Shown: piece after piece, positions 15,700 to 48,130 of the stretch
Numbering within the stretch: position 1 is the first letter of the stretch
Layout: each line of letters starts with the position of its first letter
NCBI GenBank assembly: GCA_016871445.1
Contig: VHDH01000004.1
Span: 4,435-68,434 of the forward strand
Length of the DNA stretch: 64,000 nt
Source: Verrucomicrobiota bacterium
Lineage (GTDB): Bacteria > Verrucomicrobiota > Verrucomicrobiia > Limisphaerales > SXTU01
Direction: 5' to 3'
Position numbers and translations under genes: made by a program
The notes under the pieces: model-generated
Database searches by the model: none
The model's input: only the letters and a program-made list of their open reading frames with translations
Told to the model about the DNA's origin: nothing

Positions 15700-15744
15700 A
15701 TGCGAGCAGTTGAACGATTGAATGGTGAACAAAGTGACAGCACC

Positions 15745-31750: not shown

Positions 31751-31885
31751 GAACGCCGCGCACCTACGCTGCTGTAAAAGTTTGGATTCAGTTTTCAATC
31801 TTAATACGACTACTTAATTCCCAGCCTCGGGTGTGTCTGCCGCCGGCCGCCTAGACTAAAAAAAACTGCAGTAAACGCCAGCCGA

Positions 31886-33487
31886 TTACTTTTCTTCCTT
31901 CTTGGCCGCGCCGCCGAGGGTGACATCAACGCCATATTTAAGGGAGAGATCCTGGTGTGCCTGGCCGGCCCACGAGGTATTGAGGTAAACCTTACAGACC
32001 GTCTTGAGAGTGCGGATGGCAGCCTCCTTGTCGCCCTTCGCCGCGTAGTGGCCGGCGATCTTGTATTGGGCCTCAGCGGCGGAGCTCTTGAAGAAGTTCA
32101 GCACGCCCACCAGGGTCTGGATCGCGACATCATGCTGTTTGAGGGAGCCTTGGCATTCAGCAATGCGAAAGAGGGATTGGGGCTCGCGGTTCGCTTGGTT
32201 GTAGCAGGCGATGGCTTCCTTGTATTGACCGGTCCGGTTGAAGACCTCGCCCAGCCGCCATTGAATCGCATCCGCATGTTGCGGGTGCTTGTTCAGCATC
32301 GCCTGATAAGCCTCGATGGTGCTCTTCCAATTATTTTCCTCGCCATACGTTTCGGCGATCTCGGTGTCAGCCACGTATTGGTTCTTTAGTTCACGGTAAA
32401 CGAGGCGAGCTTCCCCGCGTTTGCCGCTGGCCCGCAGGTAGGCGGCGTATTCGCCCCGAAAGGTGTCGTTGTCCGGGTGCTTTCTGGAGAGGGCGGCAAA
32501 GCGCTCCGTGGCGCGAGGCACATCGCCTGCATAGGCAAAGATTCGGGCGCACCAGTGCTCGATGGCTTTCTTCTCATCCGCGTCCGCCGTGGCCTGCTTT
32601 TCGATGAAGAGAACGGCGTTGGTGGCGATGGTGGTGCGGAGCTTCCGGCCCTTCTCGCCGTAGTAACTGGGAATGTGGTTTCCTTGGAGCGCGTCAGCAG
32701 TCCATTGGGCGAAGGTGAGCAGGTAATCCTTCTTGCGGGCGGATTGGATGAGTTCAAAGCCGCTGGCAATTTTGTTCTCAACGAGCCGGTGCATGAGCAC
32801 CCGATGCTGCGCGCCGCTGCGGAGGTTGTTGCCGGGATCCTGGTAGCTGCCGGTGGCCAAATACTCGATGTGGGGAAGCCACTTATCGGTTTTCTCAAGG
32901 CGCCAGTAAATTCGGCAGGCCTCGCTGCGGGCCAGCGCGCCGAAGTCATTGGTGGGCCACTTGGCGATGACCTTCTCGAAGGATTTCAAAGCCTCTTCAG
33001 CGTCACCGGTCTGCGTCTGGCAGACGCCGATGGAGTATTGCGCGCTGCCGGCGTCCACGGCGTCGGGAAAATAGTCAATCACGTTGCGGAACTCGCCGAT
33101 GGCGGTGTTCACTTGTCCGAGTCGGCGGGTGCATTCCGCGAACATGAGCTGGGCATAGGAGGCGACCTCGGACTTGGTGTGAAGCTGGAGGAAGAGCTCG
33201 TATTCCGAACGGGCGGACTTCCAGTTGCTCTGCTCGGCGTAACGTTCCGCGCGCGTAAGTTGGTGCCGTTCCTCCTCCGTGAGACGGACCCAGCGATCGG
33301 CGGCGAGCTTGGCGTGGGAGGAACCGACGGTCAGCAGCAGGGCGGCGAAAGCTCCAAATCCCAGGCTCCAAATCCCAAAGAAGTTCCAAGCTCCAAATCC
33401 CAAACGAGTCGGGCGAGACGGCTCGGATTTGGAGCTTGGAAGTTGGAGCTTCTTTGGCGCTGGGAATTTGGAATATGGAATTTTCAT
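31886..33487 (-). CDS. TPR-repeat protein (533 aa), last gene of the motor/TPR block
   Basis: Multiple TPR-like helical pairs (AEQSNWKSARSEYELFL, AIACYNQAN, AQYKIAGHYAAKGDKEAAIRTL). Its ATG overlaps the exbD-like stop (ATGA at 33484-33487). The first 45 or so codons lie in a palindromic repeat element, so the true start is uncertain. Confidence 0.75.
   Translation of the reverse strand: MKIPYSKFPAPKKLQLPSSKSEPSRPTRLGFGAWNFFGIWSLGFGAFAALLLTVGSSHAKLAADRWVRLTEEERHQLTRAERYAEQSNWKSARSEYELFLQLHTKSEVASYAQLMFAECTRRLGQVNTAIGEFRNVIDYFPDAVDAGSAQYSIGVCQTQTGDAEEALKSFEKVIAKWPTNDFGALARSEACRIYWRLEKTDKWLPHIEYLATGSYQDPGNNLRSGAQHRVLMHRLVENKIASGFELIQSARKKDYLLTFAQWTADALQGNHIPSYYGEKGRKLRTTIATNAVLFIEKQATADADEKKAIEHWCARIFAYAGDVPRATERFAALSRKHPDNDTFRGEYAAYLRASGKRGEARLVYRELKNQYVADTEIAETYGEENNWKSTIEAYQAMLNKHPQHADAIQWRLGEVFNRTGQYKEAIACYNQANREPQSLFRIAECQGSLKQHDVAIQTLVGVLNFFKSSAAEAQYKIAGHYAAKGDKEAAIRTLKTVCKVYLNTSWAGQAHQDLSLKYGVDVTLGGAAKKEEK
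33351..33473. repeat. TCCAA/TTGGA-rich palindromic repeat element
   Basis: GCTCCAAATCCCA occurs three times (33351, 33365, 33390). Arm 33375-33400 pairs with 33425-33457 as perfect 17-bp and 9-bp helices separated by a 7-nt bulge, with a 24-nt loop. Confidence 0.85.
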
Positions 33488-33891
33488 TTATCCACTTCCG
33501 TGGCGAGTACAATGGCCGCATCGCACTGGTTCACGATGTCCATGAGCTTGACCGCCGCGCCGTATTCCACGCCGCGATCAATGTTGATGACCACGGCGCG
33601 ATCCTTGGTGCCGACCAGTTTGGCGGTAATCCCAGCCTTGAGTTGGTCCCAGTTGGATTTTTCGCCGTTGAGGAAGACGTCCTTCTGCATGTTCAGCTGG
33701 ACGGTGACGCTCTTGTTCTCGGCGTTCTTGCTGGTGGCGGCCTTGGGCAACTTGAGGTCGATGCCGGTCACGTTCACAAACGTGGTGGCGACCATGAAGA
33801 TGATGAGCAGCACCAGGCTGATATCAATCATCGGGATGAAGTTGATGGCCGCAATCGGCTCATCCGAGTCGTCTTGAACATCCATTGCCAT
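33484..33891 (-). CDS. ExbD/TolR-family biopolymer transport protein
   Basis: INFIPMIDISLVLLIIFMV (TM with the conserved Asp) followed by a periplasmic domain. 135 aa from ATG 33891. Confidence 0.9.
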   Translation of the reverse strand: MAMDVQDDSDEPIAAINFIPMIDISLVLLIIFMVATTFVNVTGIDLKLPKAATSKNAENKSVTVQLNMQKDVFLNGEKSNWDQLKAGITAKLVGTKDRAVVINIDRGVEYGAAVKLMDIVNQCDAAIVLATEVDK

Positions 33892-33914
33892 AAGTTTCAG
33901 GGGCAAGATTACAA

Positions 33915-34541
33915 TTACTTCTGTGCGGATGGAAGTTGCTGCCGAAGATCGCGGTACGCCTGGAAGGCCTGCGATTCCAGCTCCAACGCCATATTCGAGA
34001 TAGCCTTGCTAAAATAGTTGTAAAACATCAGCGCCGGTATGGCGACGAGCAAACCCGTGGCCGTGGCGACCAGCGCCTCGGAGATTCCGGCGGCGATGAC
34101 GCTGGGACCGCCCATGCCCTGCGTGGCAATGTCAGAGAAGGCGGCGATGATGCCCTTACAAGTTCCGAATAGGCCAACGAACGGCGCGATGGAAGCGATA
34201 GTGGCTAACATCGGCAAGTATTGCTTCAGTCGCGACAATTCGCCGCGCAGCGTGAGCGCCATAACTCGTTCGGCATCGGCACTCTCGGCATCACGGCCCG
34301 AGGCGGCCTCAGCCAAGATCATCGCGGCCAGCGGCGACTCGCTTTGGCGGCAGCGTTCGAGCACCAGATCGTGCTGCTTTTTCTCCAAGGCAGTGGCGAT
34401 GTCCGTCCGCAACGCCGCTGTGGCCAAGCGGATTTGCTTAAAGAAGGCCAGGCGCTCCAGCACCACGCCGATGCTTACGATCGAGAGAAAGATGAGCGTG
34501 GCCATCGTCATCCCACCCGCAACTATCCATTCCCACAACAT
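33915..34541 (-). CDS. MotA/TolQ/ExbB-family proton channel
   Basis: 3 TMs; PFVGLFGTCKGII and SEALVATATGLLVAIPALMFYNYF are the family signature regions. Confidence 0.9.
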   Translation of the reverse strand: MLWEWIVAGGMTMATLIFLSIVSIGVVLERLAFFKQIRLATAALRTDIATALEKKQHDLVLERCRQSESPLAAMILAEAASGRDAESADAERVMALTLRGELSRLKQYLPMLATIASIAPFVGLFGTCKGIIAAFSDIATQGMGGPSVIAAGISEALVATATGLLVAIPALMFYNYFSKAISNMALELESQAFQAYRDLRQQLPSAQK

Positions 34542-34644: not shown

Positions 34645-35703
34645 TCATTTCTTCGGCCCTTTCCCGTCGAGCATCATCTTCCATTCGCTATAGCCAGCCA
34701 TCGCCTGCGCGAGGATGTTCACGCCTAGTTGGTAGGCCTGCTCGGCGGATTCTGCACTGGTCCCGCCGTGAGTGTCCTTCCAGGCATCGGAGATCGAGCC
34801 TTGATGGTAGAAGGCGACCCACCGGCCATCCTTTTTCCAGCCTAAGGCACGGGTGCCGCTATGCGCCCAAAGCGGCGGCGCGCCATTAAGCGGATACGGT
34901 GCTTGGAAGATGGGGTCGTCATCCGGAATCTCGACAGCGACTACCTCGGGCAGGACGGACTGCATCAACCGGAGGAAAACGCTGTGGAATTGGTTGCCGC
35001 CGTTGTCGGCGAAAATCATGCCGCGGTTGTCCAGCAGGTAACTGCGGACCGCCTTGATTTCCCGCTGCTCGAACCGGAAGGGATAGCTGCCCACCATGAA
35101 CACCACCGGCGGCGCGCGGCCCTTCACGTAGCGGCCCAACTCCGCCAGCGTGACATCCTGCGGGATGGTGGAGACGGGCATCTTGGCGCGGCGGCCAAAT
35201 TCCTTGGTCATGTTCTCATCGGCGCCGTTGCGAAGGTTGAAATCCCAGTTGCCGCCGTCGTAACGGACACGGACGAAGATAAAACGCGCGCCCTCGCGGC
35301 CAGCGGCGTAACCGGCGGGGCCGGCCCCTTCGCCCTGCCCGATCTTATATTCGTTGGCGGTGACCTCCTTGAGGTTGAGCGGGGTCAATTCCAGCGGCGG
35401 CACCTCGAAGACGACGGGGCTGTTCGGGTTCACCAGCACCCGCTTGCGCTGCACCTTTTTCACCTCGACCTTCATCTGCTTGATCATGGCCTTGGGCTTA
35501 CCGGAGCCCTTGACGAGATCGTAGGTCTTTTTGCAGCCAGGAATGAGCGGCATCAGGACAATCATCACCAACACACTGGCGTGGCCAAGGAACGACCAAG
35601 TAATGAAACGCCGCAGCCGGCCATGCTTGCCCTGCCAATACGCCGCATCGCGCCGGAAGGGATTCCAGACGCGGGAGGCAGGTTGGGGCGCAACGGGGGG
35701 CAT
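34645..35703 (-). CDS. single-TM protein with a periplasmic DUF4159-like (GATase1-like fold) domain
   Basis: ATG 35703 (the ORF-track start is a TTG). TM FLGHASVLVMIVLMPLI. FIFVRVRYDGGNWDF...PPVVFMVGSYPFRFEQREIKAVRSYLLDNRGMIFADNGG...DDDPIF...DGRWVAFYHQGSISDAW follows the DUF4159 pattern as I recall it. Confidence 0.7.
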   Translation of the reverse strand: MPPVAPQPASRVWNPFRRDAAYWQGKHGRLRRFITWSFLGHASVLVMIVLMPLIPGCKKTYDLVKGSGKPKAMIKQMKVEVKKVQRKRVLVNPNSPVVFEVPPLELTPLNLKEVTANEYKIGQGEGAGPAGYAAGREGARFIFVRVRYDGGNWDFNLRNGADENMTKEFGRRAKMPVSTIPQDVTLAELGRYVKGRAPPVVFMVGSYPFRFEQREIKAVRSYLLDNRGMIFADNGGNQFHSVFLRLMQSVLPEVVAVEIPDDDPIFQAPYPLNGAPPLWAHSGTRALGWKKDGRWVAFYHQGSISDAWKDTHGGTSAESAEQAYQLGVNILAQAMAGYSEWKMMLDGKGPKK

Positions 35704-35713
35704 CGAAGGGGAA

Positions 35714-35806
35714 ACGTCCAACGCTCAACGTTGAACTTCCAACTTCCAACAATACCGAACCGCAAGAACCCCAGTCCCTGAACGTTGAATGTTGAGCGTT
35801 GGACGT
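35714..35806. repeat. intergenic inverted repeat with 16-bp perfect arms, AACGTT palindromes and a GTTGGAA tandem in the loop
   Basis: ACGTCCAACGCTCAAC (35714-35729) pairs with GTTGAGCGTTGGACGT (35791-35806). TCAACGTTGA palindrome at 35725-35734. GTTGAGCGTT is duplicated at 35791 and 35805. The loop carries CTTCCAACTTCCAAC. Confidence 0.85.
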
Positions 35807-35813
35807 TGAGCGT

Positions 35814-36236
35814 TCACTTCAAATCCTTTAACAAATCGTCGTTCTTGGAGGAGAACGGGCTCTTGGGCAGGTCGCCGGGTTTGGCGATCTTGTCGATGCC
35901 CAAGGCTTTTTCCGCCTCGGCTTGGCGGTTGGTGGTGGCGGGCGTGGGCACAGCGGTGAGCGGACCGGAGGGGGGCGCGGCGGGAGCATTGGTCACGCCC
36001 ACAGGCGGCGCATTGGTGGCGGCCTTTGCGGCATCCTCGGCCTCTTTCTTCTTTAACGCGGCATCTTCGGCGGCAGCCTTGGCCTGCCGGGCGGCCTCGG
36101 CCTTTTGGTGGTTCATGTAGCTAAGGCCGCAGAGCGCACCGATGCCAAGCACGTGCAGAGCGGTGGACACACCGGTCCATTTCCAAAGCACTTTGAGTGG
36201 CACGGGAACGCGAACCTGATCAGGATTAGTTTGCAT
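35814..36236 (-). CDS. 140-aa single-TM protein with a TolA-like Ala/Lys/Glu-rich helix and a Pro-rich tail
   Basis: TM TGVSTALHVLGIGALCGLSY, then QKAEAARQAKAAAEDAALKKKEAEDAAKAA, then PPVGVTNAPAAPPSGPLTAVPTPA. No TonB or TolA C-terminal domain. Confidence 0.7.
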   Translation of the reverse strand: MQTNPDQVRVPVPLKVLWKWTGVSTALHVLGIGALCGLSYMNHQKAEAARQAKAAAEDAALKKKEAEDAAKAATNAPPVGVTNAPAAPPSGPLTAVPTPATTNRQAEAEKALGIDKIAKPGDLPKSPFSSKNDDLLKDLK

Positions 36237-36310: not shown

Positions 36311-39300
36311 TCATTGCTGCACGTCCCGGTCGGCAATGTTGACCATTTCGGGCAGCACCAATTTGCCACGCGCGAACTTCGCCGCATCGCTCTCGGGATA
36401 ATCCCAAGTGGCGCGCTTGTAGCGGCGGTAGGCAAACTCGAGCTGGTTGCCGCTGCGGTAGGACTCGCCGGCCCAGAAGATGGCATCGGGGCGGAACTTG
36501 CTGCGCGGGTAGTTCTCCACGAGCAGGTCAAACTCCTTGCCGGCTTTCTGGAACTGCTCGGCCTTGAACCAGCACTGGGCGGACCGGAACAGCATCCGCT
36601 CGGCCCATTCGTGCTGCGGGAAACGATCCACGAACTTTTTCGAGACCTCGGCCGCGGTCGGATACTCCTTCTTGTTGTAGAAGTATTCCGCGATGCGGAC
36701 GACGACGTTTGCCACGAGCGGGTTCTCCGGCCAGGTGTAGGCCAAGGTCACGTATTCCGCGCTGGCGGCGTCCATGTCATTCTTCTCCTCGTGGCACTGG
36801 CCCAGCTTGTATTGGGCATCCGGCGCAAGCGGGTGATCTGAATGGTTCTGGACGATGCGTTTGTAGTAGCTGATGGCCTCGTCGTATTTCTTCAACTCCT
36901 GCGCGAACTGGCCGAGCAGGTAATCCGTGCGGGCCTCGTATTGCTTGCTGGGGTAATCGTTGCTCAGTTCCTTGAGCAACTGCATGCCCTCGTTCAGCGC
37001 GTTGGTCGCGGCCGGTAGCTGCTTGAGCGCGCGGAAATTCTTGAACAGCTCGAAGTAAGCCTCGGCCATCCGGAACTGCGATTCGATGGCCACCTTCTCC
37101 GTCGCATACTTCTTCTCAAACACCAGCAGGTTGCCATCGGTGCCCTTCACCACGTTGATCATCTTCTCAAACTTCGCAGTCGCATCGGTCTTGCTGAGGT
37201 AGGTGAGGGTGATGGGGTCACCAAACCACCCCTCCATCCGGTCGTCGGCCGGCATGGGCTTTTCCCCGGCGACCAGCGGGAAGCTGCCGCTGAACTCGCC
37301 GCTGTGGCTCAAGGTCTCCTGCAGCTTGGCGGTGAACTTCTCGCCGCGCGGGCTGGTCAGGGTGACCTCCACGCTGTCCCGCTCATTCGAGGCGTCCGCG
37401 GTGAGATCCTTTACCACCACGAAAATCTTATCGCCGATGTAGAGGTTGGTGACTGGCTTGTCATAGCCACTGTCGGTGAACTCGACGCTGGCCGGCACAG
37501 ACAACCGGGCCTGATCCTTGAACTCCTTCTCACCCACTTTGTAGGTAAGCGTGATCACGTCCTGCCCATTGAGGTTCAGCACCGGCACCACATTGGCCAG
37601 TTGCTGCTCCCCCCCCCCGGTCGGGTTGCGGCGTCCCACCAACGAGCGCGTGTCACCGGGCTCCAGCACGATGGTCGGGGGTGAATCCTTGTCGCCCAAG
37701 TTCATGAAGATCTGCCCGACGAAGCGGCCGATCTCCAAGGCATCGTCCACTACTTTGCGTTTGGCCTGCTTGCCTCCGGCCAAGGAGGAAAGCGGGCAAA
37801 TGACCTCGACGGTGCTGCCCCCGGAGGTGGTGAGCGTGGCTTTGACTTCACTGAAGGAATCCTTGGCCGCCGCCGGGTCGATGATTTCAAACGTGAGAGG
37901 CGGGCGGAAGGCGACCGACTTGATGGCGGGGGCATTGGTGTCCAACGAGGAGGTGAACTCGAAGACCTCAGTGCCCGCCTTGTTGGCGATGGCGCGCGAT
38001 TGCACGAAGGCAACCATCACCTCACCGGGCGCAACGGCCTCCAAGTGCGTAGTCCGCAGCGTGGGCGCTCCAGGGTCGGTGTTCTGCTCATCGAGATACA
38101 TAGCCTCCAGCAAGGCACCAGGTGCCAGCTTAAAGCCGTTAGTGCGCTGCGGGGACCAGATGTCGAACTCCTTGGTGAACACACCCGTGAACGGCTCAGT
38201 CTCCGTGGCCTCCAATTTCACCGTCTCGCCGTCGGATACCTTGAGGGTAAACTTGACCTTGTCCCGCTTGTCCGTGGTGTCGGCATCGTAATCCGTCACC
38301 CGGATGATGACCCGTTGGCCAGGATCCACTCGGCGCACCTGCTTGATATAGGTGTTCGGAATCGATTGGCCAACGTTGGCTTTGAAGTCGTAAGCAATGA
38401 AACCAATCGTAGCATCAAAATAGGTGGCGACGATGTTCTGCGAGAGGTTGCGGGGCTTGCCCTGCGAAACCATGCTCGTCTCGTCCTCGTAGATGGCGGT
38501 GATGCGGTCACTCGGCGTGAGCCGTAGCGCGTCTACCGCTGCCACTTCAGTCTCGGTCTTGACGGGCAGCAGGACCGTCCCGGTAGCGTCAGTCACCTCG
38601 AACTCGGCGATGCGCGGTGCGGTGCCACTGAACTTCTCGATGAACAGCCGCACGTAGCGGCCTGAGGCGTTGGTGAGTTGGATGGTGGCAGCGGCAAAGT
38701 TGCCTGAATTTGTGGACGCGATGCGCGTGCGCTGGGCAGCGGTGGACCCGGTAAAGTTCGTGGTCGCCGCCACCGTGGTCCAGTCCGTGAGGTTGGTGGA
38801 CACCTGGATGGCATACTCGACGGGCAACTTGTCTTTGAAAACCCCGTCGTTGCTCCACTTGAGCGAGCCCAACTGTTTGTCCTGCTTAAGGTCCACGGCG
38901 ATGAACTTCGGCGCCCGACTGTCGTTCAGACCTTCCCACGCCGTCTTCGGATTATTGTCAATCGCCCGCACCGCCTCGTTGCCGGCCGAGCGGTCGCTGG
39001 CGAAGATGTTGGCCGCGATCTCCACCGTCGCAAGCGTGCCCCGGAAGATTCCTGTGTGCGGCCCCGTCTCGGTGAGGGTGGCGGTCACTTTGCTGCCACT
39101 CGAGGCAGAGACGAGCACCTTGATGGTGTCGGCGTCCTTGCTCACATCGCGATCGGCGTCCTTGACTTGAAGGTAGATATTATTGCCGGGCTTGAGGGAG
39201 TTGCCGCTGCGAAACTCCTGGCGGAACTCCAACCCGGCCTGTTTGCCTGAACGCTGCCGCTGCTCGCGCAGTTTCTCTTCAAAGCTTACTTCCTCCTCGT

Positions 39301-42300
39301 CTTTAATTTCCGTGGCCGAAAGCTTGAACTCCCCGTCAGTAGCGAGCCGGATGTTTGAGCGCGGCTTGGCGATGCTGGTGAACTGCTTCTTGAAATCATC
39401 CGGGTAATCGTAGGTGATGGTGTCGGAACCGTTGACTTGGAGGACATTGTCGCCCGCTTTCGGGTCACCTAGTTCAGTTGCCAGCTCGGCGCGGAAAAAC
39501 CCTTTGCCCGCTGAACCGCTCTCCAACCGCACCACTTCCCGATCGCCGCTGGTGGTCGTGACCACGACGGGCACGTAGCTCTGCCCGCGGCTGACCCCAA
39601 GGTCGGCATCCTGAATCACAATGTTCAGCGGCAGGCCGGGCGGATGCCATTGCTTGGCGTTGCTGCCAATCAGCCCAATGCTGCGGAGTAACATCAACTC
39701 GTCGCGGAAGCGGTTCTCCTGGCCGTAGAGCTCAGACAAGCGGTAGAGGATGCCGTCCGCCACGTCGCTCGAAGGCGCGAGGTCCATGACGTTGCGGAAG
39801 CGCGCCTTCGCGTCGTCCACGTCGCCGCGCTGCTGCGCGAGCACGCCGAGCAGAAACTCGCCCCGGCTTGCCGCCAGCTTGTCCTTCGACTTTGCCATCT
39901 TCTCGAAGACCTTCGCGGCATCCACATACATCTTCTGCTGAAGGTAGCACTCGCCGATGCGGAACTGTGCGTCCACGGCCTCCGCCGTCGTGGGGAAGCG
40001 ATTGAGCAACGAGGTGCATTCCGAGCGCGACAGGTCGTAACGCAGGGTCTTGAAGTAGTAGTCTGCCAGCGCCAGCTGGGTCTTGGCCTTCTCCTCGATG
40101 GGCACGACCGTCGAGGTTTCGTTGGCGATGACCCACCGGCGGAGAATCTTCTCCGCCAAATCGCGCGAGGCCTCGTCATCGCGTTGGAGCAGGCGGTCGG
40201 AAGTCCAGCGGATGTAGTCGGCGGGCAGCTTATCTTCGTGCTTGGCGAAGAGCGGCTCATTTGCCTGAAACGCCTTCCACGCGGCGATGGGGTCGCCCAT
40301 GCGCAGGCTCATGGCGGACTTAAGCAACGGAGCCCATTCAAGCTTCTCATCGATTTCGGCGGCAGAGAAGCCGTGCTTGTTGCTCAAGCTGAACAGCGCC
40401 TGACTCGCTTGCGCGCGCAGTTTTGCGTCCACGCCAGTGAAACGGTTCACCGCCGCGCGCAGCACGAGGCCAGATAGCTCGGGCTTGCCGAGCGAGGCGA
40501 GCTGCTGCGCCCACGGGATGTAATAGTTGGCGAGCCAGTTCCCGTCGTTTGGATTCACGCCCACGGTGATGCGGTTAACCGTGTGCGTGCAGTCGAGAGC
40601 CTTGCCTATCTGCGCCTGCCGCACGAGCAAGGCTGGCATCCAGTGTCCCCAAACCTGCACCGCGCCGAGCGACGTGATGATGTCCGCGAGGAACTGCACG
40701 TCTGCCGGCTTGGCGTCCTCGGGCTTCGCACTGGCAACGGTCTGCAAGAGAGTTTCGCCCCACTGCCACGGCACGCTGCCGGCAGTCCACGCGAAGTCAG
40801 CTGGCCGCGCGGCAGCGAGCTGAAGCGCCTTCGCTGCGGAGTTCGTGTCCTTCTTTTCTGTAAGCAGCAAGTGGCCGCGCAAGAGTTGAATGCCGCCTTG
40901 CTGCGGGCCACGATTGGCACGGGCAAGATACGCGTCGAGCGCCGGCAGCGCCCAGTCGGCCGCATTGGTGAACGAGGTGGCGATGGTGTGCAACGTGGCG
41001 GGCTCGCTGGCCGTCGGCTGCGCGGCCTTCAAAGCGGCGAGCAAGGTCTGCTTCGCCGCGTCGTTCTGCCCGAGCGTGGCCTGCATCGCGCCGATGCGGC
41101 GCTGATATTCGAGCAAACCCGGGTGGGCGGGATACAAGGCCGCCAACTTCTCATACTCCGCGCTCATGTCCGTGGCGGAGCGGCCCTGCTCGGCGACGGT
41201 GAACGTGTATTGGCGGACATGGCTCCAGCCATCGTGCGGCCAGTAGCTGCCGCCGGATTTCCCCACGGCGTCGTCCACCAGTGCAACCACGTCCTTGTTC
41301 TTCGGCGCACCAAGCTGGTAGGCGCAGAGCGAAAGGTAATACAGCACGCCGGACGCGCCCGGATGCTTGGCCAGAATCTGCTTCGCCACGTTTAAGCCCT
41401 TCTCGTAATGGCCCGCTTGATACATCGCTGCCAACACGTCGACGCCACCTTCGAGCGCGAGCGCCGGACCGCCTTCGAGATACTTCGGCAGAAGCGACTC
41501 GCCGGCGTTGCTGGCCTTCGCCCACTGACTGGCGGTGCGCGCCGTCTGGAAGTTCGCCAGCGCCGGCTTCACCAAGTCATGCTGCCGCACGCGCAGAAGC
41601 AACTCGTTGAGCTTCTTCTGCTCGCCCGGGAAGGCCCGCGGCGGGAAGTGCGGCTTAAATGCCGTGTCCACCGAGGCCAGCGCGCCGCCCCAAGGAATCG
41701 TGCGCGTGAGATACTTCTCCAAGGCCGGCAGCACCGCGTCGAACTTCGCCACGGACTTGGCCCGCGTTTCGTCCAGCGTCTTTTGTGCCGCGTCAGCCTT
41801 GACCTGGGCTTTGTCGAGCGCATCTTTGGCGGCGGCAACGGCTTTCTCGGCGGCTTCCTTCGCGGCGGGTGGCGTCTGCGCTTTCTTTGCGTCGGCGGTG
41901 GCCTTTTGGTGGTTCACCTTGGCCGTCTTCAGCGCCTCCGCGGCGGCGTCGTCCGCCTTGGTGGCCTCAGGAAATCCGGCAAAGGCGGCGTCGGCCGCGA
42001 GTTTGATGACCTGCGGCCCGTAGCTGGACATGCCGTCCTTGTCGAGGAACTGCGCAGCGAACTTGCCGACTGCCGCGTAATCCGACCGATTCCACGCGGC
42101 TTGCGTGAGCCGATAGGAAATTTCTCCCTGCGCGGCAAGGCGGAGGCTGAGGTTCTTCTGCGCGGCAAGCTTGGGCGCGGTTTCCTCCAGCAACTTCACG
42201 TGCGCCTCGGGACGCTTGAGCAGGCTGGTCATTTCGGCATGGCGGTCCCACGCGGTGCCGCTCGCAGGGTCTATCGCCAGCAACGCGATGAGCTGCTTCT

Positions 42301-43282
42301 CTGCCTCCTCAAACTGATTCGCACGGCGCAGCGCGTAGGCGTGCGCAAGGCGGACGCGCGGCCCCCACGCGGAGTTGGCGAGCTTCGGCAGGAGTTGACC
42401 GCCGAGCGCGATGGCCTGGTTGGTCAACGCCAGGTCCGGCAGCCATTCGAGCGCGAGCACTTGGAACTGCGGGTCGCCGGTGAGCTTCGCGAATTCGTCC
42501 GCGAGCGGCGCGATGAGTGCGTAGCCGTTGGTGTGGCGGCGCAGCGCCTCGATGGCAGAGTTCGCAATGCTGGCGTTCAACGTGAAGGTCGGCAGCTTGC
42601 GCTCCGCCTCGTAGGCCACGAGCGCCGCGGCGTGATCGCCCGCCGCCGAGTGGTGGTAAAACTCCGTGAACGCCGCGCCAGCGGGGTCCTGCGGAAAGGC
42701 GGCCTTGAAGCGATGTGCCGCATCCGCCGCGCCGCGATGGTCATTCTGCGCCGCGCGCATGCGATACAACCGCAACAAGAAATCGCGCGCGCGCGGATCC
42801 TGCGGGAAGGACTCACCAAAGTCCGCAAGGCAGCGCTCGACCATGTTGTTGTTGCTCAGGAGCGACGCGGCGCGAACGCAATCCGCCAACGCGTCGGCGC
42901 GCTCGGGCACGGCGGGCATCTGCTCGGCAATGGTGCGGTAAAGCGAAATGGCCTCGGCAATGTTTCCACCGGCTTCGCGGAGCCGGGCGTTCAGGTAAGC
43001 CATCGCGTTCTTCTGCGGATCGTTGGGCGACTCGCGCAGGAAGCGCTCAACGGTCTGCTGGGCCGAGATGAGCCGGCCAGCGGCAACCTGTGCGCGGGCC
43101 AGTTCAACAGTCGCCGCAGGCTTGCTCGCCCCGCCCGCGCGGACGGCGGCTTCGAGTTGGGTGATGGCCTCATCCAGCTTGCCCGCCTGCACGAGCGCCT
43201 TGGCTTCATCGAGCGCGGCGGCCCGGGCGGTGAGAGAAGCCGCTAGGAGCGCGGCGAGGGGGAATAGGGAAGGGATTTTCAT
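36311..43282 (-). CDS. giant (2323 aa) secreted TPR / beta-repeat / discoidin-domain protein
   Basis: Signal MKIPSLFPLAALLAASLTARAA (ATG 43282; the ORF-track start is 96 nt upstream). About 1150 aa of N-terminal TPR/helical repeats include an Ala/Lys coiled stretch. Five beta-type modules and an F5/8-type-C-like domain follow. The C-terminal roughly 330 aa are TPR (YEARTDYLLGQFAQELKKYDEAISYYKRIV...). Confidence 0.88.
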   Translation of the reverse strand: MKIPSLFPLAALLAASLTARAAALDEAKALVQAGKLDEAITQLEAAVRAGGASKPAATVELARAQVAAGRLISAQQTVERFLRESPNDPQKNAMAYLNARLREAGGNIAEAISLYRTIAEQMPAVPERADALADCVRAASLLSNNNMVERCLADFGESFPQDPRARDFLLRLYRMRAAQNDHRGAADAAHRFKAAFPQDPAGAAFTEFYHHSAAGDHAAALVAYEAERKLPTFTLNASIANSAIEALRRHTNGYALIAPLADEFAKLTGDPQFQVLALEWLPDLALTNQAIALGGQLLPKLANSAWGPRVRLAHAYALRRANQFEEAEKQLIALLAIDPASGTAWDRHAEMTSLLKRPEAHVKLLEETAPKLAAQKNLSLRLAAQGEISYRLTQAAWNRSDYAAVGKFAAQFLDKDGMSSYGPQVIKLAADAAFAGFPEATKADDAAAEALKTAKVNHQKATADAKKAQTPPAAKEAAEKAVAAAKDALDKAQVKADAAQKTLDETRAKSVAKFDAVLPALEKYLTRTIPWGGALASVDTAFKPHFPPRAFPGEQKKLNELLLRVRQHDLVKPALANFQTARTASQWAKASNAGESLLPKYLEGGPALALEGGVDVLAAMYQAGHYEKGLNVAKQILAKHPGASGVLYYLSLCAYQLGAPKNKDVVALVDDAVGKSGGSYWPHDGWSHVRQYTFTVAEQGRSATDMSAEYEKLAALYPAHPGLLEYQRRIGAMQATLGQNDAAKQTLLAALKAAQPTASEPATLHTIATSFTNAADWALPALDAYLARANRGPQQGGIQLLRGHLLLTEKKDTNSAAKALQLAAARPADFAWTAGSVPWQWGETLLQTVASAKPEDAKPADVQFLADIITSLGAVQVWGHWMPALLVRQAQIGKALDCTHTVNRITVGVNPNDGNWLANYYIPWAQQLASLGKPELSGLVLRAAVNRFTGVDAKLRAQASQALFSLSNKHGFSAAEIDEKLEWAPLLKSAMSLRMGDPIAAWKAFQANEPLFAKHEDKLPADYIRWTSDRLLQRDDEASRDLAEKILRRWVIANETSTVVPIEEKAKTQLALADYYFKTLRYDLSRSECTSLLNRFPTTAEAVDAQFRIGECYLQQKMYVDAAKVFEKMAKSKDKLAASRGEFLLGVLAQQRGDVDDAKARFRNVMDLAPSSDVADGILYRLSELYGQENRFRDELMLLRSIGLIGSNAKQWHPPGLPLNIVIQDADLGVSRGQSYVPVVVTTTSGDREVVRLESGSAGKGFFRAELATELGDPKAGDNVLQVNGSDTITYDYPDDFKKQFTSIAKPRSNIRLATDGEFKLSATEIKDEEEVSFEEKLREQRQRSGKQAGLEFRQEFRSGNSLKPGNNIYLQVKDADRDVSKDADTIKVLVSASSGSKVTATLTETGPHTGIFRGTLATVEIAANIFASDRSAGNEAVRAIDNNPKTAWEGLNDSRAPKFIAVDLKQDKQLGSLKWSNDGVFKDKLPVEYAIQVSTNLTDWTTVAATTNFTGSTAAQRTRIASTNSGNFAAATIQLTNASGRYVRLFIEKFSGTAPRIAEFEVTDATGTVLLPVKTETEVAAVDALRLTPSDRITAIYEDETSMVSQGKPRNLSQNIVATYFDATIGFIAYDFKANVGQSIPNTYIKQVRRVDPGQRVIIRVTDYDADTTDKRDKVKFTLKVSDGETVKLEATETEPFTGVFTKEFDIWSPQRTNGFKLAPGALLEAMYLDEQNTDPGAPTLRTTHLEAVAPGEVMVAFVQSRAIANKAGTEVFEFTSSLDTNAPAIKSVAFRPPLTFEIIDPAAAKDSFSEVKATLTTSGGSTVEVICPLSSLAGGKQAKRKVVDDALEIGRFVGQIFMNLGDKDSPPTIVLEPGDTRSLVGRRNPTGGGEQQLANVVPVLNLNGQDVITLTYKVGEKEFKDQARLSVPASVEFTDSGYDKPVTNLYIGDKIFVVVKDLTADASNERDSVEVTLTSPRGEKFTAKLQETLSHSGEFSGSFPLVAGEKPMPADDRMEGWFGDPITLTYLSKTDATAKFEKMINVVKGTDGNLLVFEKKYATEKVAIESQFRMAEAYFELFKNFRALKQLPAATNALNEGMQLLKELSNDYPSKQYEARTDYLLGQFAQELKKYDEAISYYKRIVQNHSDHPLAPDAQYKLGQCHEEKNDMDAASAEYVTLAYTWPENPLVANVVVRIAEYFYNKKEYPTAAEVSKKFVDRFPQHEWAERMLFRSAQCWFKAEQFQKAGKEFDLLVENYPRSKFRPDAIFWAGESYRSGNQLEFAYRRYKRATWDYPESDAAKFARGKLVLPEMVNIADRDVQQ
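37609..37618 (-). repeat. G10 homopolymer (C10 on the plus strand) inside the giant gene
   Basis: Plus strand reads ctgctCCCCCCCCCCggtc. It encodes Gly-Gly-Gly in NPTGGGEQQ, at about residue 1889 of 2323. Confidence 0.95.
38590..39010 (-). other. F5/8 type C (discoidin)-like domain within the giant protein
   Basis: AVRAIDNNPKTAWEG...PKFIAVDLKQDKQLGSLKW...GRYVRLFIEKFSGTAPRIAEFEV carries the canonical W..., [FW]hxVDL and hxEhEV landmarks. Confidence 0.8.
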
Positions 43283-43328
43283 ACGACAATTCAGAGCGGG
43301 GTTGGGTGGGGCGGGCCGACGCAGGCGA

Positions 43329-45542
43329 CTAGTTGGCGGTGCCACCAGCGGTTTTGCGCTTCTCGATCGCTTCCACAATCTTCTGCGCGTTCGCCACCAT
43401 CTTGCTGTTGGGATAGGTGGAGATGAGCTGGTTGAACTTCACCACCGCCTCGTCGAGTTTCTTCATTTTCACGAGGCAGCGGCCGTAGTTGTAAAGCACC
43501 ACGTCGATGAACTTGCTGTCCTGATACTGCTGGAGCGCCTCCTCGTAGAGGTCCAGCGCGCGGGTGAAGTCCTCCTTGCTGTAGTAATACTCCGCCATCT
43601 TCGAGAGTGCGTCGCCGGCCTGGTTCGAGTTCGGGAATTTCTCGAAGCAGCCCTTAAATGCCAAGAACGCTTCGTCGTAATAGATTTTGTTTTTGGTCGT
43701 GGTGCCGAGTTCCTCGAAACACTCGCCAATGGCGTATTGGGCGGCAGGCGCAAGCGGCGAGTTCTTCAGCGCGGACAACCGGCGAAAGACGCCGATAGCC
43801 TCCTGAAACTTGCCCTGTTTCTGGCTGACTTGGCCCATGAGCAGGAGGGCATCGTCCACGAATGGGCTTTCCGGGAAGCGGCGTTGGAGTTCGAGACACA
43901 TTTGCGCGGCGCGCCCGAGGTCATCCATTGCGTAGTAAATCTTCCACATCTGCACGTAGGTCTGCTCGAGGAGTCGCTGGTTGAGCGCGCCATAACTGCG
44001 CGCGACCTGCTCGGTCTCCGTGAGGGCCTGCTTGTATTTGTCCGTGGCCTGCTTGGTGAGGCCCAGTTCCTTGTAGATGTTGCCAATGTTCTTCAGGGCC
44101 TCGCTGGTCTTGAGCGCGGTTTTGAACTTCAATTCCTCGTCATTGATTTTGGCATTGGCCACCTGAAGCGGGTTCAAGTTTCCCTCAATCACCCGGGCAG
44201 TCGTGCGACGAGCCACCGGCTTGGCCTCCAGGCTGATTTCGTCCTGATACTCAATCTCCAGCAGGTCACCGACCTGCGCGACCACGGCGCCAGGGTTGGG
44301 CGTCTCGCCTTGGCGGGCCATCTGGATGGTGCCAACGAAGACACCGGTGTGAACCGCTCCGCCCGGGGCCGCGCCGTCCAGGGGTTTTTCCACCAGCTTG
44401 ACCTTCTTCTCGTCAATCACCTTGAAAACGGGCTCGGCTTTCTCCAGCGCCTCAAGCGCGGCGGTGGCATTGGCGGCGGGTTTCTCAGCTTTTTCGGTAT
44501 CCGGATTCTCCTCCACGGCGCGCTTGGTGCGGACGATGACTTCAATCTCGTCGGACTTGCCCGAGATGTCGCGGTCCGAGTCCTGGATGAGAAGGAAGGA
44601 GGGTTTGTCCAGCACCACGGCCCCGACGGCCTCCGCGAACGCTCCGTCCACGACCTTCACGCGAGCGTTGCCCACCACCTTGATGTCTTTGGTGCGAACG
44701 ACGTTGAGCTGGGCCTGTGCGGTTTGCTTGTCGGTGTAGGTGACCTTGATTTTGTCAGTGCCGATGAGTTGGACGACGCCGTCGCCAGGCTTGGCATCCC
44801 CCAACTGCGTGCGGAGGCTGCCCATGAGGATGGTCGCCCCGGGGGTAACCGGAAAGCAGGTGACGGACTCCTTGTCGCCCGCGGTGGTCTCGATGCTGAC
44901 GACCACCCCGGACTCACTGGCTTGGGCGGACAGATCCTTGTCATCAATCTTCACGTAGAGCCGCTTGCCGGCGTCGAGCTTCTCGGCCTCCTGCGCCTGC
45001 GGGTCAATCGAGGTGCCGACATTCTTGAAGGCCTCGATGGCGTTCGCGAAGCGGCCCATCTTAAAGTGCGCTTGGCCGATGTAATAATAGGCGTCATTGG
45101 AGTAAGGCGTGCCCGGATGCTGCTTGATGACCTTGCGCAACTCGCCGAACGCCTCCTCAAACTTGCCCATCTCGAAGAAGCAGATGCCCACCTGCAGGCT
45201 CGCGTCCCCGCGCTGATCGTCATCCTTGTTCTCCTCCACGGCCACCCGGCGGAACTGGTCCAGCGCGAGATCGAACTTCTTTTCCTTAAGGAACTGCTTG
45301 CCCATCTTGAGCCGCGCCAGGAAGCGCCAGCGGGAGATTGGGTAGCGGTCGATCACCGCCTTGTAGAGGTCCATGGCCGCGGGCAGTTCGCCGGCCTCGA
45401 ACCGCGCGTCCCCCGCATCAATGAGCGCCTTGGCCTTCTTGTCATCCACCAAGTTCGCCGCGCCACCGCCGACCTGCGCGTGGCCGAACGGCTGACTGTG
45501 GATGACCACCGCAACACCCAGCGCCAAAATCAATTTCCTCAT
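43329..45542 (-). CDS. secreted TPR protein (737 aa) carrying two copies of the same beta-type module as the giant protein
   Basis: Signal MRKLILALGVAVVIHSQPFGHAQ (ATG 45542). TPR pairs at both ends (YYIGQAHFKMGRFANAIEAFKNV; VLYNYGRCLVKMKKLDEAVVKFNQLI). The central modules end in KVTYTDK and IEYQDE. Confidence 0.88.
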   Translation of the reverse strand: MRKLILALGVAVVIHSQPFGHAQVGGGAANLVDDKKAKALIDAGDARFEAGELPAAMDLYKAVIDRYPISRWRFLARLKMGKQFLKEKKFDLALDQFRRVAVEENKDDDQRGDASLQVGICFFEMGKFEEAFGELRKVIKQHPGTPYSNDAYYYIGQAHFKMGRFANAIEAFKNVGTSIDPQAQEAEKLDAGKRLYVKIDDKDLSAQASESGVVVSIETTAGDKESVTCFPVTPGATILMGSLRTQLGDAKPGDGVVQLIGTDKIKVTYTDKQTAQAQLNVVRTKDIKVVGNARVKVVDGAFAEAVGAVVLDKPSFLLIQDSDRDISGKSDEIEVIVRTKRAVEENPDTEKAEKPAANATAALEALEKAEPVFKVIDEKKVKLVEKPLDGAAPGGAVHTGVFVGTIQMARQGETPNPGAVVAQVGDLLEIEYQDEISLEAKPVARRTTARVIEGNLNPLQVANAKINDEELKFKTALKTSEALKNIGNIYKELGLTKQATDKYKQALTETEQVARSYGALNQRLLEQTYVQMWKIYYAMDDLGRAAQMCLELQRRFPESPFVDDALLLMGQVSQKQGKFQEAIGVFRRLSALKNSPLAPAAQYAIGECFEELGTTTKNKIYYDEAFLAFKGCFEKFPNSNQAGDALSKMAEYYYSKEDFTRALDLYEEALQQYQDSKFIDVVLYNYGRCLVKMKKLDEAVVKFNQLISTYPNSKMVANAQKIVEAIEKRKTAGGTAN

Positions 45543-45886
45543 GAGACGTAATGCATTTTTACCCGAAACTTCCGTGAACCTTCTAGCGACTTCATTGTGC
45601 CGGATGCTATTCAGCTTTCCCGGTGCCGGTCGAGGAAGCGTTGAGCGGCTCTGGAAAGGCAATCCGCGCGCGCTGCTCGTCACGGTGACTGTGCGCGTGA
45701 CTCGGCGGCAGCCGGCTTTCAACCACTGTTCCCAGTCCACCAGAAAGAGGCCCAGGCAGGCTCCGAAGGAATGCTCCGGAATGATAGGCGGGCTTCCTCG
45801 TCACTTTTTTCGAATCGGAAATTCTTCGCTGGCGGGCAGGAAACAGATTCCCTCATCCTTACGCCGTGCCGAAGAAAACCGTTGCC

Positions 45887-46861
45887 ATGCCGCAATCACG
45901 TCCGCCGCTGGAGCGGATGCAGCGCATTCACCAAGCGCTGCACGCGGGCGGTCACCCGAACGCAAACACGCTGGCGGCGGAACTGGAAGTAACGACGAAG
46001 ACAATTTACCGCGACGTGGAGTTCATGCGGGACCGACTGGGTCTACCCATCAACTTTGACAAGCTGCGCAATGGCTACTTCTACTCTGAGGAGGTCGGCG
46101 CGTTTCCCACCTTCCAAATCACAGAAGGCGAGCTCTTCGCCTTGATCGTGGCGGAAAAGGCGCTTCATCAGTATCGCGGCACGAGCTTCGAGAAGCCGCT
46201 GCTCTCGGCGATCCGGAAGATGGAGCAAGGTCTGCCAGACACGATCTCGCTCAACCTCGCGGACGTGGAGCAGACGATCTCGTTCCGCACGACAGTGGAG
46301 CCGGTGCTGGATCTCGCAGTCTTTGACACGCTGGCGAAGGCCACGGCCGCGCGCCATCAGCTTGAACTCACCTACCGTAAGCCGGGTCAGGCCGCGCCCG
46401 AACGGCGCGTGGTGGACCCGTATCACTTCGCAAACATTAACGGCGAGTGGTTTCTCTTCGCCCACGATCATGGGCGAAAGGATGTGCGGACGTTCGTGCC
46501 GGCGCGGATCGTTGCGGTGCGGGAGACGGGCCGGAGCTTCCCTCGGCCGCAAAAGTTCTCGCTGGAGAAGCGGCTGCGCGACAGCTTCGGCGTCCACTCG
46601 GCGGAGGGAGAGTTTGACGTTTGCATCCGGTTCGATGCATCGGTGGCAGACTACATACGCGAGAAGCGCTGGCATGCGTCACAGCAGGTGACGAACCAGC
46701 CCGACGGCGGGCTTGAGCTGCGGATGAGGCTGTCGAGTCTGGTAGAAGTAGAGCGCTGGGTGTTGGCCTGGGCGGGCCGTGCGGTGGCGGTGTCGCCGCC
46801 AAAACTGGTAGCCGCGGTGCGCGCCGGAGCGGCGAAGCTGATGGGCCGACATGGGGGCTGA
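45887..46861 (+). CDS. HTH + WYL-domain transcriptional regulator (YafY/PafBC-like)
   Basis: N-terminal RMQRIHQALHAGGHPNANTLAAELEVTTKTIYRDVEFMRDRLGLPI (HTH_11/DeoR-like). Central RVVDPYHFANINGEWFLFAHD (WYL beta-core). C-terminal WCX-like tail. Divergent from the TPR block. Confidence 0.85.
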   Translation: MPQSRPPLERMQRIHQALHAGGHPNANTLAAELEVTTKTIYRDVEFMRDRLGLPINFDKLRNGYFYSEEVGAFPTFQITEGELFALIVAEKALHQYRGTSFEKPLLSAIRKMEQGLPDTISLNLADVEQTISFRTTVEPVLDLAVFDTLAKATAARHQLELTYRKPGQAAPERRVVDPYHFANINGEWFLFAHDHGRKDVRTFVPARIVAVRETGRSFPRPQKFSLEKRLRDSFGVHSAEGEFDVCIRFDASVADYIREKRWHASQQVTNQPDGGLELRMRLSSLVEVERWVLAWAGRAVAVSPPKLVAAVRAGAAKLMGRHGG

Positions 46862-46981: not shown

Positions 46982-48130
46982 ATGAGCCAAGCGCCCGAGC
47001 CCAACCCGCATCACGTCAGCACCTGGAAGTTTCTCGTGGCGCTGGTCGTAGTGCTCGCGCTGGTGGGACTCGGCTCATGGCTAGCCATGCGTAAGGCAGA
47101 AAAAGATTACGCGCGGCGTAACGACGCGCCCAAGGGTCTGGGTCACGCAGCTCCTGCGTCAAAAAATCCCGTCAGCCCGGCCGCGAGCAACCAGAATAAT
47201 CACTCGTGGACCAACGGCATGAAGTGGATTCCGGGCGGCAGATTCTTGATGGGTTCCGAGGAAGGCCAACCGGACGAAAAGCCCGTGCATGAAGTTACCG
47301 TGGACGGCTTTTGGATGGACACCTACGAGGTTACGAATGCGGAGTTTGAGAAGTTTGTGAAAGCCACGGGCTATATCACCATCGCCGAGCGCAAGCCCCG
47401 GCAGGAGGATTTCCCCGACGCACCGCCCGAGGCGTTGGTGCCGGGATCTATCGTCTTCACCCCGCCGCCCGGCGAGGTGCCGCTGCACAATCACATGGCT
47501 TGGTGGCGCTATGTGCCCGGCGCAAGCTGGCGGCGTCCCGAAGGCCCAGACTCGACGATTCAGGGCCGGGAGCAGCATCCCGTGGTACAGGTAGCGTGGT
47601 TCGACGCGATGGCCTACGCGAAGTGGGCTGGGAAGCGTTTACCAACCGAGGCCGAGTGGGAGTTCGCCTCGCGTGGCGGCAAGGAAAAGCTCACTTACAC
47701 TTGGGGCAACGACAAGACGCCCGACGGCAAGTGGCTGGCGAACATCTGGCAGGGCAGTTTCCCAAACGGCAACACCTTGCAGGATGGGCACAAGCTCCAG
47801 TCCCCCGTCGGCACCTACGCACCCAACGGTTACGGCCTCCACGACATGGCGGGCAACGTGTGGGAGTGGACGGGCGACTGGTATATGCCGGATTACTACG
47901 CCAAGAGTCCCAAACTCAATCCCCAAGGCCCGCAGGAAAGCTATGATCCGAACGAGCCCGGCGTCTGGAAGCGCATCACGCGCGGCGGCTCCTACCTCTG
48001 CACCGAGGCCTACTGCTGGGGCTATCGACCTGCAATGCGCATGAAGACCTCGCCCGACACGGGCTTGAACCACACGGGCTTCCGCTGCGTGCGAAATGGT
48101 CCCCCTGCTCCCAATCCCCCCGGCAAGTAG
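46982..48130 (+). CDS. formylglycine-generating enzyme (SUMF1/FGE), membrane-anchored
   Basis: N-terminal TM, HEVTVDGFWMDTYEVTNAEF, HPVVQVAWFDAMAYAKWAGKRLPTEAEWE, GLHDMAGNVWEW, and RGGSYLCTEAYCWGYR with the catalytic C-x4-C pair, then GFRCV. Confidence 0.88.
   Translation: MSQAPEPNPHHVSTWKFLVALVVVLALVGLGSWLAMRKAEKDYARRNDAPKGLGHAAPASKNPVSPAASNQNNHSWTNGMKWIPGGRFLMGSEEGQPDEKPVHEVTVDGFWMDTYEVTNAEFEKFVKATGYITIAERKPRQEDFPDAPPEALVPGSIVFTPPPGEVPLHNHMAWWRYVPGASWRRPEGPDSTIQGREQHPVVQVAWFDAMAYAKWAGKRLPTEAEWEFASRGGKEKLTYTWGNDKTPDGKWLANIWQGSFPNGNTLQDGHKLQSPVGTYAPNGYGLHDMAGNVWEWTGDWYMPDYYAKSPKLNPQGPQESYDPNEPGVWKRITRGGSYLCTEAYCWGYRPAMRMKTSPDTGLNHTGFRCVRNGPPAPNPPGK

Follow-up and report, generated by a model that had tools for sequence, protein, structure and literature searches.

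THE TWO TPR PROTEINS AND THEIR MODULES

The stretch of DNA considered here (the window) is 64,000 nucleotides long and comes from a Verrucomicrobiota bacterium (assembly GCA_016871445.1, contig VHDH01000004.1, positions 4,435 to 68,434). It contains two adjacent minus-strand genes for tetratricopeptide repeat (TPR) proteins, one of 737 residues (TPR-737, or T) and one of 2323 residues (the giant, or G), and the subject of this study is a β-type module of which an initial annotation had recognized seven copies, two in T and five in G. Both proteins have Sec-type signal peptides that lack a lipobox cysteine, more than half of each consists of TPRs, including CpoB/BamD-like units, and the domains identified with Pfam and NCBIfam are TPR families at both protein ends together with an F5/8 type C domain at residues 1430-1550 of the giant. 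Six more genes follow downstream on the same strand, encoding a 140-residue protein, a DUF4159 protein, ExbB, ExbD, a TPR protein of 533 residues, and a putative lipoprotein resembling FGE-sulfatase proteins. The two genes that carry the modules are as follows.

43329..45542, minus strand: TPR-737 gene; Sec signal peptide, then TPRs at the N-terminus, modules T1 and T2, and CpoB/YbgF-like TPRs at the C-terminus (translation, Pfam, NCBIfam; 25 orthologues in metagenome-assembled genomes of Verrucomicrobiota)
36311..43282, minus strand: giant gene, 2323 residues; Sec signal peptide, about 1200 residues of TPR/helical repeats, five immunoglobulin (Ig)-like modules with a nested discoidin domain, C-terminal CpoB/YbgF-like TPRs (Pfam, NCBIfam)

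Both proteins exceed the cut-off of TIGR02795 (CpoB/YbgF; 90.1 bits), with scores, summed over several TPR units, of 146.8 bits for TPR-737 and 136 bits for the giant. Their architecture and operon are unlike those of CpoB, a small periplasmic TPR protein of the tol-pal operon, and no TolB or Pal gene was found adjoining the cluster among the neighboring genes of the window. No outer membrane sorting signal, such as the C-terminal domain of the type IX secretion system (T9SS), was recognized in either protein, the Sec signal peptides being the only such signals.

The extents of the modules are listed below. The independent hidden Markov model (HMM) cited in the list was built from 36 family members from outside the window; the AlphaFold2 model covers residues 1205-2045 of the giant (an 841-residue segment, modeled with an alignment of 25 distant homologues), and model residues are numbered along this segment.

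44670..44996, minus strand: module T1, full domain, residues ~183-291 of T; nearest to G1 (independent HMM, hhalign)
44187..44645, minus strand: module T2, full domain, residues ~300-452 of T; charged insertion of ~45 residues between core strands two and three (independent HMM, hhalign)
39317..39658, minus strand: module G1, full domain, residues ~1209-1322 of the giant, with a charged helical linker after it (AlphaFold: strands, model residues 15-118; helix, 130-145; independent HMM)
39020..39208, minus strand: module G2, N-terminal half, residues ~1359-1421 (independent HMM, 71.5 bits)
38633..38995, minus strand: F5/8 type C (discoidin) domain nested in G2, residues 1430-1550 (PF00754, 40.9 bits, cut-off 28.2)
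38423..38533, minus strand: module G2, C-terminal strands, residues ~1584-1620 (HMM; AlphaFold strands at model residues 382-415)
38033..38413, minus strand: module G3, full domain, residues ~1624-1750 (independent HMM, 63 bits)
37499..38020, minus strand: module G4, divergent full domain, residues ~1755-1928, with two insertions (hhalign, distant orthologues, AlphaFold)
37145..37495, minus strand: module G5, full domain, residues ~1930-2046 (AlphaFold, independent HMM 86 bits, Foldseek)

HOMOLOGY OF THE SEVEN COPIES

The seven peptides from which the module had been described do lie where they had been placed, on the minus strand in the TPR-737 and giant genes, and the segments that contain them are homologous: six are connected by pairwise comparison and the seventh, G4, by profile-profile comparison, by distant orthologues, and by the AlphaFold model. 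Pairwise phmmer runs on the segments together with 2,100 shuffled decoys gave E-values of 6e-12 for G1 and T1, 1.6e-8 for G2 and G5, 5e-7 for G2 and G3, 4e-5 for G2 and G1, and 1e-3 for G2 and T2, and none of the decoys was matched by any of the six linked module queries (all but G4). Chance or low-complexity similarity among the modules was rejected because the decoys were unmatched. The independent HMM scored G5 at 86 bits, G2 at 71-81, T1 at 66, G1 at 64, G3 at 63, and T2 at 46 (in two pieces).

G4 is weak in searches of this kind, with an independent E-value (iE) of 0.81 for an HMM of six modules, 3.4 bits for the independent HMM, and no phmmer partner among the other six segments. Profile-profile comparison with hhalign, in which the per-module alignments comprised 26 giants, at 25-69% identity, and 23 orthologues of TPR-737, connects all seven modules: T1 pairs with G1 at 99.6% (E 1e-23), T2 pairs with G2, G3, and G5 at 96-98% (G5 97.9%, G2 97.4%), and G4 pairs with G1 at 97.7% (E 2e-12) and with G5 at 97.4%. 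Distant orthologues also give a direct match at the position of G4 (iE 1.8e-8 in locus L028 and 5e-5 in locus L030), and AlphaFold renders G4 as a β-sandwich. Because phmmer links six of the segments and the orthologue profiles join G4 to them, the count of seven homologous copies is correct; G4 is a strongly diverged one. A six-frame scan with the six-module HMM found no further copies in the window, and additional copies elsewhere in it were rejected on this basis.

The two genes had also been suggested to be paralogues, and they are: BLASTP aligns residues 34-337 of T with residues 1063-1391 of the giant (E 1e-18) and residues 222-719 of T with residues 1863-2267 of the giant (E 1e-21). It follows from these alignments that T is collinear with the C-terminal half of the giant minus residues ~1392-1949. 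The best module pairs according to hhalign are T1 with G1 and T2 with G5.

MODULE BOUNDARIES AND FOLD

The β-type character of the recurring module is borne out by hhalign together with the AlphaFold models of the segment and of G5. The segment model has a mean predicted local distance difference test score (pLDDT) of 83.5 and a predicted template modeling score (pTM) of 0.66; G5 modeled alone (residues 1928-2050) has a pLDDT of 94, a pTM of 0.86, and nine strands. A full module has about 115 residues and 8-9 strands in the AlphaFold models, in agreement with a period of 117 residues in tandem arrays of other proteins. The spans first assigned to the copies captured the core correctly, from strand A′ to strand F, whereas strand A and the final strand G, as seen in the models, fall outside them. 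For G2, the assigned span (39020-39190) corresponds to the N-terminal half of a domain that resumes beyond the F5/8 type C insert.

The discoidin insert interrupts G2 after the fourth core strand, and the last strands of the module restart ~30 residues beyond the insert (LRLTPSDRITAIYEDE...SQNIVATYF, residues ~1584-1620). Splicing the two halves of G2 raises the score with the independent HMM from 71.5 to 80.8 bits, and the C-terminal piece alone covers HMM positions 76-102 (9.7 bits, E 3e-5); the Asp of the YxD motif in this piece (D396) is invariant in 26 giants. The Foldseek matches of the discoidin insert are galactose oxidase, and two distant homologues of the giant (P0070 and P0112) are likewise listed with a discoidin domain. 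One of the two insertions in G4 is a low-confidence loop in the AlphaFold model.

THE DOMAIN FAMILY

The initial annotation could not place the module in a named family. This holds for Pfam, in which no Pfam-A model covers the module, either in the window proteins or in proteins with 16-19 tandem copies, and in which neither set of proteins has a match at E≤0.1 over the module to a named family of the bacterial Ig-like, CARDB, PA14, cadherin, or Calx-beta type. It does not make the module an orphan: its sequence is homologous to the Ig-like domains of the archaeal protein NmSLP (Nmar_1547; Protein Data Bank (PDB) entries 8C8K/8C8L/8C8M; von Kugelgen et al. 2024, PMC11153153), the module matches repeats of the Kustd1514 family, and its fold is an ordinary Ig-like/macroglobulin (MG)-like one. 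A profile of six core sequences had no match among PDB sequences, and a 37-member profile of diverse full-length modules matched 8c8k_A (NmSLP) at E 3e-25 as the sole convincing structure. The best stretch of 8c8k_A is residues 1517-1603 (E 2.4e-13), and the VxDxDxN, LxETGxxTGxF, and GDxhxhxYxD motifs, where h is hydrophobic, repeat across 13 of its stretches. The possibility of a new fold, raised at the outset, did not stand either: the Foldseek matches are Ig-like/MG-like sandwiches with NmSLP at the top. For G5 the NmSLP Ig-like domain 8C8K comes first (E 1.5e-5, template modeling (TM) score 0.71), followed by the MG2 domain of α2-macroglobulin (2P9R), with a Leptospira protein whose function is unknown and a DUF4785 protein as further matches; for the five-domain model (residues 1205-2045 of the giant), NmSLP and the MG chains of complement and α2-macroglobulin are best.

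The latter matches bring up the reading of the giant as an α2-macroglobulin-like protease trap in which the modules are MG domains. The modules do share a β-sandwich fold class with MG2 (PF01835; PDB 2P9R; TM 0.54-0.66), there are weak Pfam MG2 matches, of which the one on G5 reaches 14.8 bits against a gathering score of 32.8 (E 0.038), and Foldseek retrieves the α2-macroglobulin MG2 domain and chains of complement C3/C5, ECAM, and CD109. However, on both window proteins MG2 falls short of its gathering score, the TM-scores for whole chains are only 0.13, and the sequence signature fits NmSLP far better. The window proteins also differ from MG2 proteins in missing the thioester-protein architecture, Pfam and NCBIfam scans having found no thioester, bait-region, CUB, or receptor-binding domain. 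A protein of the α2-macroglobulin type is accordingly most improbable, and it was rejected because the thioester-protein domains are absent from these scans.

The relationship to the S-layer glycoproteins of anammox Planctomycetota is seen at the level of the domain. NCBIfam NF052345 (Kustd1514 S-layer glycoprotein) matches G2 at E 5e-6, and tandem-array proteins match it at E 8e-86 to 9e-65 over model positions 981-1303; the anammox glycoprotein thus carries the same repeat, at about positions 981-1303. The window proteins share a domain with Kustd1514, not a protein family, since the whole giant scores 24.1 bits against a cut-off of 1400 and TPR-737 has no match. A paper on the glycosylation of Kustd1514 does not describe its domains. 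The homologue Brosi_A1236 is predicted to have Ig-like domains of ~100 residues (PMC7482068).

The extent of the family was apparent from an exhaustive search of 1.84 billion representative proteins (clusters at 50% identity) with the six-module profile, which matched 2,543 clusters at E≤1e-3, of which 978 were at E≤1e-10; some of the proteins have 30-43 tandem copies, the highest number of matched stretches in one protein being 43. Such a search was needed because word-indexed searches gave only fragmentary close matches, 4 for the T1-T2 segment and 5 for the six-module profile. Among the top 150 clusters, about 80 are giants of 2,200-2,900 residues that cover the equivalent of residues 900-2320 of the window giant with 24-63% identity, and the remainder carry 10-43 copies in tandem. 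Among the array proteins that have a name are a Psychroserpens protein sorted by the T9SS, a Hyphococcus "Ig-like domain-containing protein," and proteins from Actinomycetota metagenome-assembled genomes (MAGs). The module is therefore a complete Ig-like/MG-like sandwich of about 115 residues from a large family, not modeled in Pfam, that has a solved member and that builds NmSLP, the Kustd1514-type anammox S-layer glycoproteins, and long surface-protein stalks in Bacteroidota, Alphaproteobacteria, and Actinomycetota. The family signature is hxVxVxDxD(L/x)(N/D) ... D ... VxVxhxS..GDxE..hxLxETG..(T/S)GxFxGxh ... DG.L.h..GD.h.h.Y.D.

All relatives of the module found here that are characterized or named are surface proteins (NmSLP, Kustd1514, and the T9SS-sorted protein), and the pTM of 0.66 for the multidomain model hints at a packed arrangement of the modules, as opposed to beads on a string. 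These observations favor a reading in which export takes T and the giant to the surface, where they form or anchor a Ca2+-dependent, S-layer-like lattice, with ExbB and ExbD serving export or anchoring. NmSLP is the closest comparison, with a sequence-level match, shared motifs, the best structural match to G5, acidic domains, and a lattice that is sensitive to EGTA. It differs in being an archaeal extracellular protein that consists solely of ten Ig-like domains tiling a hexagonal lattice (PMC11153153), whereas the window proteins are bacterial and Sec-exported, have 2 or 5 such domains between TPR solenoids, and are encoded beside ExbBD; the identity of NmSLP to G5 is only 14%. The Sec signal peptides unaccompanied by a recognizable outer membrane sorting signal, the low number of modules (only 2 and 5, with no long arrays), and the predominance of TPRs, with CpoB/BamD-like units that are typical of periplasmic or outer membrane-associated factors, argue against a surface lattice, which we consider unlikely for these proteins.

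CONSERVED RESIDUES AND CATION BINDING

Residue conservation was counted over 1,244 instances of the family. The conserved positions are Asp at position 11 (83%), 13 (61%), and 21 (51%), Asn or Asp at position 15 (68%), Gly at position 32 (79%), Asp or Glu at position 33 (85%), Glu at positions 35 (67%) and 41 (88%), Thr at position 42 (77%), Gly at position 47 (85%), Phe at position 49 (94%), Tyr at position 79 (57%), and Asp at position 81 (53%). In G2, G3, and G5 the counterparts of the conserved acidic residues vary little or not at all among giants with identities as low as 25%; in an alignment of 26 giants, with residues D171 to D527 numbered along the 841-residue segment, D171, D181, E201, G207, and F209 of G2 and D462, D464, E490, F498, and D527 of G3 are invariant. 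If placed according to the modeled strands, these residues would form two clusters, one at one end of the sandwich, comprising the DxDxN loop, the ETG loop, and the GD turn, and a second at the opposite end, comprising the GDxE hairpin, the DG loop, and YxD. In other tandem arrays of Ig-like domains, an acidic arrangement of this kind at both ends is used for Ca2+ sites between domains. The NmSLP lattice is stripped by EGTA (PMC11153153), and Brosi_A1236, a Kustd1514 homologue, forms sheets when Ca2+ is supplied (PMC7482068). Binding of a divalent cation (Ca2+) by the acidic loops, which was proposed from the DxDxD turn, is therefore plausible, because the acidic positions are conserved and two relatives depend on Ca2+ for the integrity of their lattices.

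The conserved residues can also be viewed as a binding face. The segment E41-T42-G43...G47-x-F49-x-G51 is the most conserved of the family and is invariant across distant giants, and G2 contains a nested F5/8 type C domain, a type of domain known to bind carbohydrates and lipids; the modules might thus bind a ligand (glycan, peptidoglycan, or protein) at the ETGxx(T/S)GxF face, with the discoidin domain as a second sugar site. Against this, F49 and G47 are most likely part of the hydrophobic core and a tight turn, respectively, and arrays of 16-43 near-identical copies typify stalks and lattices, not binding sites. Moreover, Pfam detected no similarity to any carbohydrate-binding family in the module, tandem arrays included. 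Ligand binding by the modules themselves appears improbable.

THE ExbB/ExbD GENE CLUSTER

The genes downstream of the giant for which the features are most informative are as follows.

35814..36236, minus strand: 140-residue protein; TolA/TonB-like transmembrane helix with SxxxH, linker, conserved C-terminal peptide (translation, alignment of 16 orthologues and the 114-residue protein of locus L030)
34645..35721, minus strand: DUF4159 protein; N-terminal helix with SxxxH (WSFLGH) (PF13709, 98 bits)
33915..34541, minus strand: MotA/TolQ/ExbB proton-channel subunit (PF01618, 110 bits)
33484..33906, minus strand: ExbD/TolR subunit (PF02472, 96.6 bits)
31886..33487, minus strand: third TPR protein, 533 residues (Pfam TPR families), in which the six-module HMM found no module

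The 140-residue protein has a conserved VSxxxH transmembrane helix, as in TolA and TonB, followed by a variable linker, rich in Ala/Lys/Glu and in Pro, and by a conserved tail (...LGIDKVAKPG.PKSPFS..DDLLKDLK; C-terminal peptide ...PKSPFSSKNDDLLKDLK), and it has no globular C-terminal domain. Pfam found no TonB/TolA C-terminal domain in this protein or in the DUF4159 protein, both of which keep the SxxxH helix and linker. With its tail docked in a TPR groove, the 140-residue protein may act as a minimal force transducer. The SxxxH helix of the DUF4159 protein resembles that of the SHLS-anchored vWA "new force transducers" of bacteria of the Planctomycetota-Verrucomicrobiota-Chlamydiota (PVC) group (PMC12204202); the literature found on DUF4159 consists of a Pfam paper only.

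The gene set is conserved. The TPR-737 gene is present in 26 loci from Verrucomicrobiota MAGs, and a gene for a giant (56-83% identity) comes next wherever the contig is long enough. In a locus with Planctomycetota hallmark genes, where the giant is 41% identical, the order is TPR-780, giant, ExbB, and in the Planctomycetota locus L030, where the giant is 27% identical, it is TPR-754, giant, ExbB, ExbD, ExbD, a 114-residue SxxxH protein, DUF4159, and TPR-573, the last occupying the place of the 533-residue TPR protein of the window. In both of these loci, two modules are found in the shorter TPR protein and four or five in the giant. A 2025 survey described PVC clusters consisting of a gene for a TPR protein, a tolQ-like gene, tolR-like genes, and an SHLS-anchored transducer, with a function reported as unknown (PMC12204202); the window cluster fits this class and supplies its largest components. 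No description of a planctomycete giant TPR/ExbBD system emerged from a literature search aimed at one.

Several records with TPR-737 orthologues 87-91% identical to that of the window bear other names, L003, L005, L008, and L015 being titled "Klebsiella" and L007 and L009 "Proteobacteria bacterium"; all other matching records are Verrucomicrobiota MAGs, and these labels look wrong. In L024 (~12370-19345), the giant orthologue is spread over at least seven overlapping open reading frames in different frames, which looks like assembly indels, not a pseudogene.

Proteins with an FGE-sulfatase domain flank the cluster (30782-31798, minus strand, and 46982-48130, plus strand). The one at the end of the operon has a possible lipobox (GAGC), like the GldJ/GldK-type lipoproteins of gliding/T9SS systems, and no such gene adjoins the cluster in locus L030. 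A regulator with helix-turn-helix, WYL, and WCX domains (45866-46861, plus strand) is divergent from the TPR-737 gene. The window also encodes a DUF1552 (HXXSHH) protein (49847-51157, minus strand), of a family typical of Planctomycetota and Verrucomicrobiota, which would fit the taxonomic placement of the window.

PROPOSED ROLE OF THE MODULES

The reading that we favor, and regard as probable, is that the modules are cation-stabilized acidic Ig-like spacers in periplasmic scaffolds that are coupled to a proton motor. In both proteins the modules link the N-terminal TPR solenoid to the C-terminal CpoB/YbgF-like TPR domain, and the Ig-like strings would act as rigid acidic spacer and assembly elements that are probably stabilized by divalent cations. 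T and the giant would be periplasmic scaffolds of a conserved PVC envelope system driven by the ExbB/ExbD motor through two SxxxH-anchored, transducer-like proteins, the 140-residue protein and the DUF4159 protein, with the TPR ends of T and the giant binding extended segments of the transducers; the nested discoidin domain of the giant may hold a glycan. The scaffold role is suggested by synteny and domain content and is proposed by analogy with CpoB-TolA and with GltD/E-GltG/J of the Agl-Glt system (PMC11761067).

The window proteins resemble the TPR scaffolds linked to TolQR/ExbBD (CpoB, GltD/GltE, and those of the PVC clusters) in having ExbB/ExbD neighbors and CpoB-like C-terminal TPRs, and the cluster as a whole resembles such systems in having two SxxxH helices followed by disordered linkers and in being conserved across PVC phyla. 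To our knowledge, none of these TPR proteins has Ig-like or discoidin domains. The putative transducers of the window differ in having DUF4159 or no globular domain, compared with the TonB C-terminal or vWA domain of known systems. The structural model of Myxococcus GltD/GltE contains TPR and helical domains, and no β-sandwich has been described in it (PMC11761067).

A number of observations weigh against periplasmic scaffolds with cation-stabilized spacers. The characterized relatives of the module are all extracellular, and the periplasmic assignment comes from signal peptides and TPR content; the tie of T and the giant to the motor has synteny as its one line of evidence, and the TIGR02795 scores are inflated through multiple TPR units. 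With respect to cations, the full DxDxD is present only in G2, G3, and T2, is partial in G1, T1, and G5, and is absent from G4, so that four of the seven modules are without it; G4 lacks most of the signature residues, and the predicted location of the acidic residues at the ends of the sandwich derives from the strand order of G5.

A more ambitious proposal, which we regard as possible but doubtful, is that T-like proteins of about 750 residues, the giant, the two SxxxH proteins, ExbB/ExbD, and the third TPR protein constitute a PVC-specific trans-envelope machine in which the motor pulls on or remodels a cation-stabilized Ig scaffold, the tail of the 140-residue protein docking in the TPR groove. 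If this were true, the machine would correspond in function to Tol-Pal or Agl-Glt but have a different shaft, in part a β-sandwich.

The domain family to which the modules belong is large and extends over bacteria and archaea; S-layer proteins of organisms of the nitrogen cycle are among its members, and a representative has been solved, yet the family has no Pfam model; therefore thousands of giant proteins stay annotated as hypothetical, which defining the domain would fix. More interesting than the module itself is its recruitment into a deeply conserved, uncharacterized gene cluster of PVC bacteria linked to ExbBD. The presence of an outward-facing lattice domain within the TPR proteins of this cluster gives concrete parts to the motor-driven systems of the PVC group.

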